Shown one piece after another: positions 22,043 to 28,735 of a stretch of DNA of 42,702 bases. The notes under the pieces were generated by a model. The model made no database searches. It saw only the letters and a list, made by a program, of their open reading frames with translations, and had not been told where the DNA came from. This stretch comes from Candidatus Moranbacteria bacterium GW2011_GWC2_37_8 (GTDB taxonomy: Bacteria; Patescibacteriota; Minisyncoccia; Moranbacterales; GWC2-37-73), in the NCBI GenBank assembly GCA_000992165.1, contig LBTS01000001.1, forward strand, positions 705 to 43,406. The letters run 5' to 3'. Numbering within the stretch: position 1 is the stretch's first letter; each line of letters starts with the position of its first letter. Made by a program: the position numbers and the translations under genes.

Positions 22043-22050
22043 GTTTATGC

Positions 22051-22101
22051 CGAGGTTGCGGGAGTCAATCCGAACTTATTTGATTGAATATGGGTATTAA
22101 A
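22051..22101 (+). repeat. left copy of a ~50-bp direct repeat bracketing the abiE cassette
   Basis: CGAGGTTGCGGGAGTCAATCCGAACTTATTTGATTGAATATGGGTATTAAA matches 23549-23600 with about 5 substitutions and 1 indel. Confidence 0.85.
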
Positions 22102-23469: not shown

Positions 23470-23548
23470 ATTGCAATCTTCGAACCCATAATTCTTGCTT
23501 TAAATAAAACGAAAACAGACTCCTTTGCAGAAGTCTGTCCTCACTTGT

Positions 23549-23600
23549 CGAGGTTGTGGGAATCGATACGAACTTATTTGATTGAACATGGGTATTGAAA
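23549..23600 (+). repeat. right copy of the ~50-bp direct repeat bracketing the abiE cassette
   Basis: CGAGGTTGTGGGAATCGATACGAACTTATTTGATTGAACATGGGTATTGAAA. Confidence 0.85.
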
Positions 23601-23868: not shown

Positions 23869-24137
23869 GTGATTCCTCCTTGTTGGTGGTATGTGAATGA
23901 AAACTGCGCCAATTTGCCAATATGCTAAATCCATTTTTCAGATTTAGATTTTTCAAGTTACTAACAAACAAGCATAGCATATCAAAGCTAATTTGTCAAG
24001 CACCCCAGCGATTCTCTCTTATTTAAGCCTAAATATTAACTCCCGCAGTTGTTAGGCGTGCAAAAAATTCCATTTTTTGCTTACAGGCCGTATTTCAAAT
24101 CGTTCCGACGGCAGTCAAGGGAGTAAAGCCGAGCGAT

Positions 24138-24151
24138 GGGGCGCAGGGATT
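24138..24151. repeat. left copy of the 14-bp direct repeat (putative att core)
   Basis: GGGGCGCAGGGATT is identical to 28490-28503 inside tRNA-Pro. Confidence 0.8.
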
Positions 24152-24300
24152 TACGCGTCACTCTTTCGTCGACACTCAAGAGTTCCTTGTCCTGGGCAGC
24201 GCTGAATGCTCCTATGGTCGCATCCATCGACGCACACTGCGTTATTGTTCTGCTGAACAATAACTTGTTTAGCTTCTGCCCGTTCGAATCCTTGCGCAAG

Positions 24301-24353
24301 ATACATAAGAAAAACAGGATGACTCAAAAAGTCATCCTGTTTTTCTTATGTAT
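24301..24353. repeat. perfect 24-bp inverted repeat (hairpin, 5-nt loop)
   Basis: ATACATAAGAAAAACAGGATGACT-CAAAA-AGTCATCCTGTTTTTCTTATGTAT. Confidence 0.95.
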
Positions 24354-24474
24354 GTCGAGTGTCGTAGGTCGTGTTAGAACGGCAATTCAAGAGTCAAATG
24401 CTTACATCCATATACCCGACTTGAAGGAGTTTGCTTGAAAAATTCACTGTATCATATCTTATAGTTTGCGTATG

Positions 24475-24498
24475 CTGATGTTGACCATCAGTTTTTTT
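24475..24498 (+). terminator. intrinsic terminator on the plus strand
   Basis: CTGATG-TTGAC-CATCAG followed by TTTTTTT. No convincing protein gene lies upstream on this strand. Confidence 0.6.
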
Positions 24499-24626
24499 GT
24501 TTTTCAATATGTGGGGTGCTTATGTTTCAATGAAGTCAAGCTTTGGAGTTAAAATCACTTGCTCCCATCTCAGCTAAATTTCTAATATGTAATAAGACTT
24601 ACTATAAATAGTTAGCAATAAAAAAA

Positions 24627-24650
24627 AGCCAGAGTTTTTACGCTCTGGCT
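24627..24650 (-). terminator. terminator of the 286-aa orphan gene
   Basis: AGCCAGAG / CTCTGGCT stem and an 8-nt T-run on the minus strand, about 40 nt after the stop at 24691. Confidence 0.7.
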
Positions 24651-24690
24651 ATTATGCGAATTTCTTGCTTAGTCTTTTCAGGACATCTTT

Positions 24691-25551
24691 CTAATTATTC
24701 TGAAAAAACAATTCGTTTACTTTCTCTATAACTTTTTTTGAGTCATCTTCTGAAAGCAAAGCTCTTTTTTCAAGAAGGTCTTCCCATCTTGAATTGATAT
24801 CCCATCTCTGTTGTTCAGCAGTCTCAACATAGGAAGCTCCAACCGCCGTATGACCTCCCGTAACCTTGCCCTTTTCGTCTCTTGTTTTTTCCCAGCCTGT
24901 AATGGTTTTATCCTCAAGTCCATCGAGTAATTGTGGGAATAAACCGTTTGTTGACCTCAAGGAATAAAATATATTTCCAATCAAAACACTGCTAGGTTTA
25001 GTTTTTTCTAGTGACGAAATAAAATCAACAAACACTCGGTAGTTAGGATGACCTTCGATATATTTAAGCACTACTCTCATGTTATCACTGCGTTCTAAAA
25101 CTGGTTCAGGGTTTTCATTTACAAGTTTATCCCAAAAGGCTTTTGCAACTTCTTGATTTTTTGCACGGTCAAGGGATGCAACAATGAAAGAAAAATTTTC
25201 CAGTTCATGGTCAAATGTACCCGTGTTGTATTTATCCAGCAAAGGTTTCAATGATGTTTTGTTTATCATTTCTACTAACTGCTTAGGGTCTGTTTCAAGC
25301 CCCTCACGATTACCATTCATCACATCATTCATAAGCTGATTAAACTTACGAAACGCATTGATACGTTCATTTACATTTTTTTCAATGCCTGCTTCATTTG
25401 CAATAGTTTCTACAACCTCTTTAAGCTCTTCCTGTTTCTTTATAAGTTGTTCTCTCTCATTGCTCATCTTGCTTTCCTCTGGAGACATCATTGACTTTGC
25501 CTTGAACTCTTCTTTGATGGTTGGATTGTATCCCATTTTTTCATTTTCCAT
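24691..25551 (-). CDS. hypothetical 286-aa protein (element cargo)
   Basis: AAGGGGG Shine-Dalgarno 9 nt upstream of the ATG, plus its own terminator. Charged coiled-coil-like N-terminus. No domain recognised. Confidence 0.7.
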   Translation of the reverse strand: MENEKMGYNPTIKEEFKAKSMMSPEESKMSNEREQLIKKQEELKEVVETIANEAGIEKNVNERINAFRKFNQLMNDVMNGNREGLETDPKQLVEMINKTSLKPLLDKYNTGTFDHELENFSFIVASLDRAKNQEVAKAFWDKLVNENPEPVLERSDNMRVVLKYIEGHPNYRVFVDFISSLEKTKPSSVLIGNIFYSLRSTNGLFPQLLDGLEDKTITGWEKTRDEKGKVTGGHTAVGASYVETAEQQRWDINSRWEDLLEKRALLSEDDSKKVIEKVNELFFQNN

Positions 25552-25707
25552 AGTTTTGTTCCCCCTTGTTAAATTACTTATTTATTTTTTGATTATTATG
25601 GCTTCATTGAGCTCATTTACATCCATTATAGCATGCTTTACGGCTTTTGTCTATCCTTTCATCATATTTACTGATATAGTTTGTGTATATCAATAAAATA
25701 CATTAGC

Positions 25708-26328
25708 ATGAAAAAATTAAAATTAGATTCAGATTTTATTTGGATACTTAAAACAATCAAGCATATCAGCAATGCAAACAATGGCAATGCGTTTGAATAT
25801 CTCTTTGATGACGTGCTAACCCTTGAAGGTGCGCCGGCTGTAAGAAGCATCCATGAAGGCACGATTAGCCAGTTTGAGGCAATGGGTGTGATTAGCGCAC
25901 AGGAAATAGGCAATGCCTTACATGATGGAGTATTCAAATTGGAGGGATTCAAGATTCAAATTTTGAAATCCAAGTTTGATGAAATTCAAAAAGAACTATC
26001 CATTCAAAAATCAGCAGTAAAAACTTATACTTCTCATTTTTTCGACAGCAAGGCGCTAATTAAAATCAACACGCAAGACATTCCATTGCCTGCATATGCC
26101 AATGAACACCTTCTTTGCAGAGTTATGTTTGAATACATGATAGGAGAACCAGTGGATTGGTCTATTATTTTTGAAAAAATGACAGGTGATGAGCCCAAGG
26201 ATAAAAATAAGAATTCAAGAATGGTCAGAGATACCATGCATGCAGTCAATGAACGAATCCATGAGCTTGCAAAAACAGAAAGAGACCTTTTTGAATGGAA
26301 AAACAAATGCATCAAAAGACTTTTTTGA
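25708..26328 (+). CDS. hypothetical protein, possible C-terminal winged-helix DNA-binding region
   Basis: Divergent from the 286-aa gene. The first ATG is at 25708. The tail SRMVRDTMHAVNERIHELAK..LFEWKNKCIKRLF resembles OmpR-type wHTH ends only weakly. Confidence 0.55.
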   Translation: MKKLKLDSDFIWILKTIKHISNANNGNAFEYLFDDVLTLEGAPAVRSIHEGTISQFEAMGVISAQEIGNALHDGVFKLEGFKIQILKSKFDEIQKELSIQKSAVKTYTSHFFDSKALIKINTQDIPLPAYANEHLLCRVMFEYMIGEPVDWSIIFEKMTGDEPKDKNKNSRMVRDTMHAVNERIHELAKTERDLFEWKNKCIKRLF

Positions 26329-26332
26329 AAAT

Positions 26333-26359
26333 GTGAGTCAGTGAGTCACAGGTGAGTCA
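26333..26359. repeat. three copies of the word GTGAGTCA
   Basis: GTGAGTCA at 26333-26340, 26341-26348 and 26352-26359, just after the stop at 26328. Confidence 0.9.
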
Positions 26360-26440
26360 CATCCACAAATTATACCATTGAGCCAAGATTTATATTTTGG
26401 CTTTTTTGTTTTGCAAAACATTACCGCCGAACCCATACTC

Positions 26441-26644
26441 ATGCAATTCAGTGATGAATCAATAGAAAAATTTCGAATGCTCTACTCTCAGCGTTTCGGC
26501 AAAGACCTTGACCGCAAGACTGCTTTTGAATATGCACAGAAACTTTTTCGAGCCATTGAACTCACTTATGTTCAGATGTCAGTTGCAGACTTCAAAAATT
26601 TGCAAAAGCGTCGCAAAGAAACTAAGCCAGATTCTCACCATTAG
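26441..26644 (+). CDS. hypothetical small protein (67 aa from the first ATG)
   Basis: The ORF track starts at a TTG at 26378. First ATG gives MQFSDESIEKF. No Shine-Dalgarno and no recognised domain. Confidence 0.4.
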   Translation: MQFSDESIEKFRMLYSQRFGKDLDRKTAFEYAQKLFRAIELTYVQMSVADFKNLQKRRKETKPDSHH

Positions 26645-26865
26645 CAAAATTTCGCTACCTAAGCCATTTTCTCAGCTTTAGCACTCATCCATGCATCACG
26701 CAGTCTATAGCCATTCACCGCAGTCATAATCCAAATACTCTCAATAAGTCCTATTGCTAACCATTCATCAAATACATTTATGCGAGCCAGAGCTTCTCCA
26801 AAATCATATCAGATACGACGTTAGAAATAATTCTTAACCTTGGGCAGTATTGTGTATAAAATGGC

Positions 26866-26894
26866 TTGTATAAGCCTAAATATCGTCCTATAAT
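26866..26894 (+). promoter_or_regulatory. promoter of the serine recombinase gene (would give a leaderless mRNA)
   Basis: TTGTAT (26866-26871), 17-nt spacer, TATAAT (26889-26894). The ATG lies 6 nt after the -10 box. Confidence 0.55.
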
Positions 26895-26900
26895 ACAAGC

Positions 26901-28517
26901 ATGAGCAAAAACGAACAAAAAATCCACTATATCCTGTATGCACGCAAGTCATCCGAAGATGAAAGGCGCCAAGTGCAGTCTATTGAAAACCAGATTCAAA
27001 TAATGTTGGACAAAGCCAAGGCATTAAAATTGCATATCGTTGATGTTTTGCAGGAATCAAAATCAGCCAGAAAGCCAGGCAGACCAGTCTTCAATGAGAT
27101 GATGGAAAGAATCAAACGGGGTGAAGCGGATGGAATTTTAACATGGCATGCAAATCGTCTTTCAAGAAATCCATTGGATGCGGGCAATGTTCAATGGGCA
27201 CTGCAAAATGGAACTATCCGCTCAATCATGACAAATGACAGGGAATATTTACCAGAAGACAATTCTCTCATGCTTGGAATGGAATGTTCCATGTCTGAAC
27301 AATACAGCAAAGACTTAAGCAAAACCGTAAATAGGGGGCTTCTCAGAAAAGCGAAGGAGGGCTGGCTTCCAAATCTTCCACCAACTGGATATATCAATGA
27401 CAAAGTGAACAAGATAATCATCAATGACCCCGAGCGTTTTCATTTGGTTCGCAAAATTTGGGACTTGATGCTTACTGGAAACTATACTCCTCCGCAGATT
27501 CTCAAGATTGCCAATGATGAATGGGGATTCCGCACACGAAAATATGAAAAGTCTGGTGGTGGCAAACTTTCAAGAAGTGGAATCTATAAAATGCTTACCA
27601 ATGGATTTTATCTTGGCTTTTTTTACAAGAAAGGTGAACTTTTTGAAGGTAGCCATGAAAGGATGATAACTGTTGATGAATGGGACAGAGTACAGACACT
27701 CTTGGGACGCAAAGGCAAACCAAGACCAAAGAAACACTCCTTCGCTTTCACCGGTGCGATTCGTTGCGCCGAATGTCAATGTCTTATTACAGCAGAAACA
27801 AAGAAAAAAATCATCAGGAAGACTGGTGAAATTCGCAGTCACACCTACTACCATTGCACCCACAAACGAACGGACATGAAATGTTCACAGCGTAAAAACA
27901 CCTTAGAGTCAGGACTAGAACTAATGATAGAGCAAGAGTTAGACAAATATACGATACTACCAGAGTTTAAAGAATGGGCAATGGAAGAATTAAACAAGGC
28001 TAATGACAACGAGATTGAAACAAGGACTAAGATGTATGAAATGCTACATAAAGCCTATACAGAGGCACAGAAGCAACTAGACACGCTCACAAAGATGAGA
28101 TACAGAGACCTAATCAATGACGAGCAGTTTCTTAGGGAGAGCAGAATACTTGAAGCTGAAATAGCTAAGCTAAAAGAGAAATTAGGCACCACAGAGGCAC
28201 GAGCGAAGCAATGGTTGGAGCTTACCGAAAAAACCTTTGAATTCGCTACTTATGCCAGAAATGCATTCCTCAAGGGTAATGACACGCTCAGAAAAGAATT
28301 GCTTTTGACTTTAGGTCAGAACCAAATACTTGGAAACCAAATACTCACTCTACAAGCGTATGAATGGTTTGTTCCTATCAGTGAAGACTATCCAAAACTT
28401 AAAGCTGAATATGTGAAGGTTAGAACCAATAAAAAACTATCTACAAAAGCAAAAACAGATGCTCTCACATCTGTTCGTGCACACTGGTCGGGGCGCAGGG
28501 ATTCGAACCCTGTCTAA
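26901..28517 (+). CDS. large serine recombinase / integrase
   Basis: Resolvase catalytic domain (YILYARKSSEDERRQVQSIENQ, HANRLSRN), recombinase domain, zinc ribbon (CAECQC...YYHCTHK..C) and a long coiled coil. The last ~11 codons are tRNA-Pro sequence. Confidence 0.9.
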   Translation: MSKNEQKIHYILYARKSSEDERRQVQSIENQIQIMLDKAKALKLHIVDVLQESKSARKPGRPVFNEMMERIKRGEADGILTWHANRLSRNPLDAGNVQWALQNGTIRSIMTNDREYLPEDNSLMLGMECSMSEQYSKDLSKTVNRGLLRKAKEGWLPNLPPTGYINDKVNKIIINDPERFHLVRKIWDLMLTGNYTPPQILKIANDEWGFRTRKYEKSGGGKLSRSGIYKMLTNGFYLGFFYKKGELFEGSHERMITVDEWDRVQTLLGRKGKPRPKKHSFAFTGAIRCAECQCLITAETKKKIIRKTGEIRSHTYYHCTHKRTDMKCSQRKNTLESGLELMIEQELDKYTILPEFKEWAMEELNKANDNEIETRTKMYEMLHKAYTEAQKQLDTLTKMRYRDLINDEQFLRESRILEAEIAKLKEKLGTTEARAKQWLELTEKTFEFATYARNAFLKGNDTLRKELLLTLGQNQILGNQILTLQAYEWFVPISEDYPKLKAEYVKVRTNKKLSTKAKTDALTSVRAHWSGRRDSNPV

Positions 28518-28559
28518 ATGATCCCAAATCACTCGTGCTACCGTTGACACCACGCCCCG
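28485..28559 (-). tRNA. tRNA-Pro (anticodon UGG) with encoded CCA
   Basis: 75-nt cloverleaf: acceptor CGGGGCG/CGCCCCG (C1-G72), anticodon loop TTTGGGA, T-arm CAGGG-TTCGAAT-CCCTG, A73 then CCA. Confidence 0.9.
28490..28503. repeat. right copy of the 14-bp direct repeat (putative att core) inside tRNA-Pro
   Basis: GGGGCGCAGGGATT is the complement of tRNA-Pro T-loop end, T-stem 3' strand and acceptor positions 66-71. Confidence 0.8.
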
Positions 28560-28642
28560 TTACAAATTTTAAATTCTAACAACCTATTAAAATTCTACCT
28601 TTGTCTCTAAATACAGCAATCAGTAACAAAACTATCTTGTAA

Positions 28643-28671
28643 AATTTGTAACGGGGCACGCCCCACAAATT
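28643..28671 (-). terminator. hairpin 1 with GGGGCACGCCCC core, probable terminator of the GIY-YIG gene
   Basis: AATTTGT-AAC-GGGG-CACG-CCCC-ACAAATT. On the minus strand it is followed by TTTT. Confidence 0.5.
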
Positions 28672-28696
28672 AACAAGAGCTTCCGTAATCTGTCTT

Positions 28697-28735
28697 CTGA
28701 AATTTCTAACGGGGCACGCCCCAGAAGAATTTCAG
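28697..28735. repeat. hairpin 2 with the same TAACGGGGCACGCCCCA core
   Basis: CTGAAATTTCT-AAC-GGGGCACGCCCC-AGAAGAATTTCAG. The outer stem differs from hairpin 1 but still pairs. It overlaps the GIY-YIG stop codon. Confidence 0.8.

Follow-up and report, generated by a model that had tools for sequence, protein, structure and literature searches.

Our analysis of a 42,702-nt stretch of DNA (the window; all coordinates are positions in it, on the forward strand of the contig) identified a recombinase gene whose last codons appear to depend on whether its element is free or inserted. Judged from the sequence, the element at 24358-28490 was very probably inserted at the 3′ tip of a tRNA-Pro gene by its own large serine recombinase, with its attP lying in the gene for that enzyme and with crossover in the tetranucleotide GTCG. 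By this assignment, attP sits within the last part of the recombinase gene, and the crossover falls inside the open reading frame. The clade appears to write attP into its own last codons, so that a conserved helix would distinguish the enzyme of the free form from that of the inserted one. The features are collected in Table 1.

Table 1. Positions of the features discussed in the text, with the evidence or remarks for each.
Feature	Positions	Strand	Evidence or remark
Integrated large-serine-recombinase element	24358..28490	+	4133 bp, 4-bp core counted once; empty sites of four relatives
attL core GTCG	24354..24357		its TCG codon in phase with TCG 28488-90
attR core GTCG	28487..28490		P arm left, tRNA right
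Large serine recombinase ORF, integrated reading, 538 aa	26901..28517	+	Pfam
Detached recombinase tail, 26 codons and stop	24358..24438	+	tblastx, tail matches, codon-position variation
Cargo genes: 286 aa (-), ~206 aa (+), ~77 aa (+)	24691..26644		no known-family match
tRNA-Pro(UGG), target gene	28485..28559	-	ARAGORN and Rfam
tRNA-linked structured repeat, chromosomal	24138..24300	-	14-bp copy (24138-51) is its 3′ terminal arm; no Rfam match
24-bp perfect hairpin	24301..24353		chromosomal; in the empty site, the terminator that immediately follows tRNA-Pro
Accidental open frame, 74 codons	24136..24357	+	crosses structured repeat and hairpin

The boundaries of the element were fixed by genomes that lack it. 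The window stretch 24358-28490 is missing from four related genomes (G018:C2, G008:C34, G016:C14 and G001:C6), in which 24357 is joined to 28491. At these empty sites the segment 24138-24357, comprising a structured repeat and the terminator hairpin, passes directly into tRNA-Pro, and the match to this segment shares 4 nt with the adjoining match, which starts at 28487. All four genomes align as ...hairpin-(T/C)TGTCG at the junction with GGGCGCAGGGATTCGAAC... or, written out differently, as ...(T/C)TGTCG joined to GGGCGCAGGGATTCGAACCCTG. This alignment identifies 24358-28490 as the inserted DNA and leaves attL and attR with only GTCG in common, a short site that is the antisense of tRNA positions 71-74; the target is not duplicated. 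The tRNA-Pro gene ends in ...CGCCCCGACA, without CCA, in the empty sites, whereas it ends in ...CGCCCCGACCA when the element is integrated. The comparison indicates that the encoded CCA comes from the element's Trp codon: the last two bases of CCA are donated by the TG of the Trp529 codon TGG (28485-87). The element's integration produced no displaced tRNA-Pro 3′ fragment of the kind that marks tRNA islands in Islander, since the tRNA-like 14-bp copy at 24138 is already present in the empty sites as part of the structured repeat. A spare internal copy of attP was not found within the window, where the best, unrelated match covered 28 of 54 bases.

The integrated form recurs in three other assemblies at 99.97-100% identity. 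Ten contigs carry the exact recombinase protein, and all of the displayed ones, L053-L055 included, have the integrated form. Neither a circular nor an empty-site form of the window element itself was found, and an exact scan of metagenome contigs for the predicted attP joint gave no match. A 4323-bp Logan contig was considered as a possible circle and rejected, its ends falling inside the structured repeat and the tRNA; terminal overlap was likewise absent from all six contigs of homologues with the tail type of C-terminus (L009-L011 and L048-L050). Contigs of related genomes (G001:C20, G001:C11, G019:C11 and G012:C4; loci L043, L047 and L044) stop about 30 nt or less from the Trp codon of the recombinase or from its tRNA overlap, and 35 of 120 homologues stop 2-3 residues past W. 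Assemblies thus seem prone to break at this att site, perhaps owing to the presence of more than one junction form.

The two copies of the core lie in matching codon phase, TCG 24355-57 in the phase of the downstream frame and TCG 28488-90 in that of the recombinase. The same in-phase layout was found in two independent integrated relatives at tRNA-Gln genes (L051 and L052). Only one crossover position is consistent across the three elements, namely the second and third positions of the codon that follows Trp, which are CG in the window element and TG in both tRNA-Gln elements. Palindromic central dinucleotides are unusual for a serine integrase, and the palindromic CG counts against the proposed explanation of the element. 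In L052 (on a contig of NCBI GCA_040960625.1), crossover at the inferred TG after Trp would turn the encoded discriminator of tRNA-Gln from G to A, whereas crossover within TGG would leave it unchanged.

The enzyme has the domains of a large serine recombinase. Pfam matches were obtained for Resolvase (PF00239, 9.3e-20, residues 11-154), Recombinase (PF07508, 1.2e-07) and Zn_ribbon_recom (PF13408, 2.3e-06), and the catalytic motif YARKSS...RQ..S fits invariant columns of the alignment, as in an N-terminal resolvase domain. An AlphaFold2 model of the homologue P0005 contains a coiled coil of long helices (368-415 and 421-472). The fold matches were to the SPbeta, phiC31 and Bxb1 integrases; SPbeta integrase, the best match in both sequence and fold, is the nearest solved relative. 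In the integrated reading the gene ends in TGG TCG GGG CGC AGG GAT TCG AAC CCT GTC TAA, or ...WSGRRDSNPV*. Antisense tRNA-Pro(UGG) sequence makes up the final 11 codons, with TGG (Trp529) as antisense CCA and GAT TCG AAC (DSN) as antisense T-loop, and residues 531-538 (GRRDSNPV) and the stop codon come from the antisense tRNA. The cargo genes gave no match in Pfam or PHROGs, and no directionality factor was recognised in the element; a small gene 5′ of the recombinase is conserved in L009.

What the gene would encode in the free element can be read by joining the element's ends. The P arm codes for ...LTSVRAHW-S and the P′ arm for the following 26 residues, SVVGRVRTAIQESNAYIHIPDLKEFA, so the joined ends would read ...SVRAHW-S-SVVGRVRTAIQESNAYIHIPDLKEFA*, giving 556 aa as against 538 aa when integrated. 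The excised circle would carry the joint ...CACTGGTCGAGTGTCGTAGG... within a predicted attP sequence ...GTGCACACTGGTCGAGTGTCGTAGGTCG..., and the restored attB would read ...TTCTTATGTATGTCGGGGCGCAGGGATTCG... This arrangement is seen in L009, an ENA contig with an unintegrated relative that encodes P0005 (63% identical) and is colinear, without a gap, with the end and then the start of the element: in tblastx, L009 bases 2361 and 2365 correspond, contiguously, to bases 4130 and 1 of the element. The attP joint of L010 and L011 reads as in L009, and the tail matches have E values of 5.7e-07 to 4e-06. An earlier sequence-only reading had proposed that an att site lies inside the recombinase ORF and that the integration state swaps the C-terminal tail. 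The empty sites and the colinearity of L009 bear this out, and the excised form would gain an extension; its length would be 26 residues (SVVGRVRTAIQESNAYIHIPDLKEFA), not the ~95 then proposed.

The tail codons proper (24358-24435) behave as protein-coding sequence. We compared five tails: the attL copy of the window, the attP copies of L009 and L010, and orphan copies in L040 and L041. Among 22 codons, the variable columns number 13, 9 and 21 at codon positions 1, 2 and 3, and in each pair of tails 4-10 codons show synonymous differences only. This third-position periodicity reaches well past the 25-bp half-site, which argues that the tail is under protein-level constraint. At the attL of three integrated elements, and likewise in the orphan copies, the tail frame has remained intact. 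P0002 and P0003, the two closest homologues (64% identical), are integrated at tRNA-Gln genes and have their tails, LTTVNLVRTAIQEATEYIHIPNL and LTIVDRVRTIIQQTTEYVHIADV, 4.4 kb upstream, in phase with a short shared core. The orphan tails lie in L040 (G006:C34, 1625-1693) and L041 (G011:C1, 2298-2345 and 4280-4345), examples being LSVVDEVRTAIQETTEHIHIPNL and VVEEVITIFENKNEYIYIPDLR. Each immediately follows a terminator, with recombinase genes that have a different, intact tail several kb downstream. These orphans may be left over from earlier insertions or may belong to composite arrays.

Both kinds of C-terminus are found in the wider family. Among the best 120 of 4562 database matches, 75 end in W-x4-D/E-S-N, encoded by the antisense of many different tRNAs, with W corresponding to CCA and DSN to the T-loop. 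Another 35 of these 120 end 2-3 residues past W; some were probably cut at contig ends, as is suspected because P0020 is identical to P0011 up to its end. A different tail is found in nine of the 120, and eight of the nine share the motif h-x-x-x-h-R-T with the window tail. In more distant relatives from the same bacterial family, the C-terminus is read from antisense tRNA-Trp or tRNA-Gly, or is a tail. A tblastn search did not find attL tails for the tRNA-Trp and tRNA-Gly subfamilies, probably because they are too divergent. The clade, with thousands of members in the database, is aimed at the 3′ tip of tRNA genes, and the tRNA-derived C-termini of its database entries would be no part of the free-form enzyme.

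These observations suggest a cycle in which the circular (attP) form would produce the tailed, 556-aa enzyme and this enzyme would carry out integration. In the model of the P0005 homologue, the last helix of the long form would continue through the tail. After integration the frame would enter the antisense tRNA, yielding a 538-aa protein with its last helix cut short and capped by GRRDSNPV. The tail codons lie 4.1 kb away at attL and would be reunited with codon 530 solely in the attP form. One hypothesis, which we advance tentatively, is that the tail matters for integration by the circular form and that, once it is lost, the integrated enzyme differs in activity or directionality. Residue F532 of SPbeta integrase, near the C-terminus, matters for directionality according to PMC11722253, citing Abe et al. 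2021 (pmid 33244797), and by analogy an effect of the tail swap on directionality is plausible. An effect on activity, if true, would be a very simple state-dependent switch and a serine parallel to Mx8 IntP/IntX and the archaeal 'suicidal' integrases.

Serine integrases are widely used as tools in genome engineering, and their one-way behaviour normally needs a separate directionality protein. A more specific proposal is that the detachable C-terminal helix is itself a directionality toggle: the tailed enzyme would recombine attP with attB, and the tailless enzyme would either recombine attL with attR without a factor or be inactive until a factor is supplied. We consider this proposal doubtful. 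Were it true, tRNA-targeting serine integrases throughout a CPR clade would sense their integration state via their reading frame.

Alternatively, the overlap might have no function. attP would lie by chance on the 3′ end of a gene in a compact element, the tail would be dispensable, the two proteins would act alike and the conservation would be that of the P′ half-site. This could well be the case. The tails vary in length (17-31 aa) and, past h-x-x-x-h-R-T, in sequence, diverging fast after the first ~8 residues, and the conserved stretch coincides with the P′ half-site. In addition, the invariant GTTAGAAC (V-R-T) mirrors GTTCGTGCAC of the P arm, as half-sites should, and integrated copies bear arbitrary tRNA-coded ends of 2 to ~60 aa. 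The AlphaFold2 model of P0005 has a single helix, 529-568, spanning the joint; confidence there is a modest 59-74, and it is low in the tail (59-65, and 40 at the end). Against a functionless overlap, the codon-position variation and the synonymous-only differences reach 15-20 codons past the ~25-bp half-site, and the tail frame is kept open at attL and in the orphans.

By analogy with the integrases described in PMC8371274, which are split by their own integration, one could also envision a one-way, 'suicidal' event, in which the 538-aa enzyme is inactive and the element is locked in place, to be released only by an intact copy acting in trans. In favour of such a lock, every form recovered, from several samples, was integrated, and the element has no recognisable directionality factor. 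We nevertheless think it rather unlikely. The loss amounts to 26 of 556 residues, with the catalytic and DNA-binding domains all intact, and the Mx8 integrase is active after an equivalent swap (PMC6070905). Moreover, assemblies drop rare forms, and the detached tail is intact at attL, which suggests that cycles of excision still expose it to selection.

The least tenable alternative, which we regard as very improbable, is that of the sequence-only reading, in which the att core is the 14-bp repeat GGGGCGCAGGGATT, the element spans 24152-28503 and excision fuses a tail of ~95 aa (24152-24438) to the recombinase: although the 826-kb assembly has just two copies of the repeat (24138-51 and 28490-503), which match exactly and have equal codon phase, with the frame open, this model is refuted by the four relatives whose empty sites keep 24138-24357 beside tRNA-Pro; copies of the tRNA end flank every member of the structured-repeat family, recombinase present or not; the homologue tails match only 24358-24438; the frame is stopped in 16 of 29 repeat copies; and if the pre-insertion tRNA were reconstructed with the left copy, its end would be CGCCCCA-TCG, without G72 and the A73 discriminator. 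The two frames and the repeat exist as that reading described, and the crossover was placed 220 bases too far left.

The right copy of the 14-bp repeat is the antisense of the 3′ end of tRNA-Pro(UGG), and the left copy is the terminal arm of a structured repeat of ~160 nt. Because the left copy is present in the empty sites of the four relatives, it is not a product of the element's integration. From the sequence comparisons, then, the 14-bp repeat and the GC-rich, hairpin-rich stretch around its left copy are an unrelated chromosomal repeat that would have stood behind the tRNA before the element came. DNA matches to the structured repeat (24138-24296) were found in 21 of the 40 relatives searched, often several per genome (L012-L037), and further copies lie on contigs C11, C16, C22 and C48 of the same genome. 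The copies are located 20-180 nt behind tRNA genes, on the tRNA strand, and the upstream tRNAs include Leu, Glu, Asp, Tyr, Lys, Gln, Gly and Pro. At its start, each copy is complementary to the T-stem and the 3′ strand of the acceptor in its neighbouring tRNA; at its end, it repeats that strand directly, and the two ends pair in a closing helix of ~12 bp. The median exact match of the ends is 12-13 nt to the neighbouring tRNA, compared with 5-6 nt to other tRNAs. Since the ends copy the neighbouring tRNA, the 14-mer at 24138 is explained as the terminal arm matching tRNA-Pro. In such genomes, elements bounded by tRNA-fragment repeats can be assigned wrong boundaries, as happened at tRNA-Pro here.

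The core of the structured repeat is ~125 nt long, with covarying hairpins and the motifs GGCAGAAGC, UUCAGCAGAA, GGACAAGGA and GACGCG, and copies also occur in tandem. The closing helix mimics the acceptor and T-stem 'minihelix' of the upstream tRNA, sometimes with CCA, and the whole looks like a tRNA top-half in which the core replaces the T-loop. A search of Rfam over 23950-24460 gave only chance, sub-threshold matches to the hairpin, and the GC-rich block was considered and discarded as a candidate tmRNA, SRP RNA or riboswitch.

The frame that begins ATG GGG CGC AGG GAT TTA... at 24136 and closes at 24438 has 100 codons, of which only the last 27, including the stop (24358-24438), are beyond chance. 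An open phase of 74 codons over 24136-24357 was seen in 2.4% of base shuffles; the repeat family itself was preferred as the null over such shuffles, and of its 29 copies 13 have the equivalent phase open and 13 have stops in all three phases. The sequence-only reading had allowed that the frame might be accidental, which holds for these 74 codons and fails for 24358-24438, where the codon-position variation speaks for coding. Likewise, the extensions it expected in homologues do exist, over the 24358-24438 part alone, and 24152-24357 has stops in related copies while the structure is conserved. G-U pairs (38 vs 18) and the folding energy of the alignment (-42 vs -25) favour the strand of the repeat that is opposite to the 74-codon frame. 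The ATG at 24136 was also rejected as the start of a stand-alone gene, given this orientation and the lack of a convincing ribosome-binding site (GGGAG, 12 nt upstream).

Several known systems resemble the window element in part. In Mx8, attP lies within int, and integration supplies the gene with a different 3′ end, so that the enzyme is changed in its properties but still active (PMC6070905; Tojo et al. 1996, as cited there; PMC4383910). The window element has this in common with Mx8 IntP/IntX, attP being inside the integrase coding sequence and integration yielding a recombinant gene. Mx8 Int, however, is a tyrosine recombinase with a long core identity and arm sites, whereas the window enzyme is a large serine recombinase with 4 bp in common between its sites, and here the new tail is antisense tRNA. 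Archaeal integrases of the SSV type (SSV1, pTN3 and pT26-2) have the site in their own gene, as a compact integrase-att module that is partitioned on integration (PMC8371274). They too use tyrosine chemistry, their gene is split into two substantial parts and the design has been called exclusive to archaea (PMC8371274); in the window, by contrast, a bacterial (CPR) host carries a serine recombinase from which no more than the final 26 codons are detached. The attP-spanning integrases of both types thus differ from the window enzyme in chemistry, and the window system shares their layout and is not a member of them.

In the Islander study of 2014, some integrases, for example those of Mx8 and SSV, were noted to extend across attP, and tRNA genes were stated to lie outside the known targets of serine integrases (PMC4383910). 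Phage-type large serine integrases (SPbeta SprA, A118/LI, phiC31 and Bxb1) have, like the window enzyme, a resolvase domain, a recombinase domain and a zinc ribbon with a long coiled coil, and, like the window element, short att sites with a minimal shared core. The window clade differs in an extra C-terminal region of ~90 residues that ends in the swappable helix. An incomplete search of the literature found no report of a phage-type serine integrase with attP in the integrase ORF and no published description of an attP-spanning layout for serine recombinases, which is not proof of its absence.

The parallel that the sequence-only reading drew with integration-dependent immunity in mycobacteriophages is a loose one. 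In those phages attP lies in an element gene, the C-termini of the viral and prophage proteins differ and some attB sites are 3′ ends of tRNA genes (PMC8092301). There, however, the split gene encodes the repressor, the integrase is a tyrosine recombinase and the tail removed is an ssrA-like -AA degradation tag (PMC8092301). Neither the split repressor nor the tag applies here: the split gene is the recombinase, and the tails end in EFA, NAV, ANL or REW, none in -AA.

Further features were noted near the element. Directly left of the structured repeat is a non-coding piece of ~100 nt (24033-24136), single-copy in its own genome, that recurs in other genera at 78-89% identity (three copies in G018, and G032, G012, G008 and G002). 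A 54-nt direct repeat (22048-22101 and 23546-23599, 87% identical) flanks an AbiEi/AbiEii cassette. It recurs in G018 beside a second structured-repeat copy of the tRNA-Pro type, 3.2 kb from tRNA-Pro, which hints at stacked insertions at this tRNA. Finally, two hairpins at 28629-28726, with the core TAACGGGGCACGCCCCA resembling the tRNA-Pro acceptor, lie between a GIY-YIG gene and tRNA-Pro and are conserved in G018.
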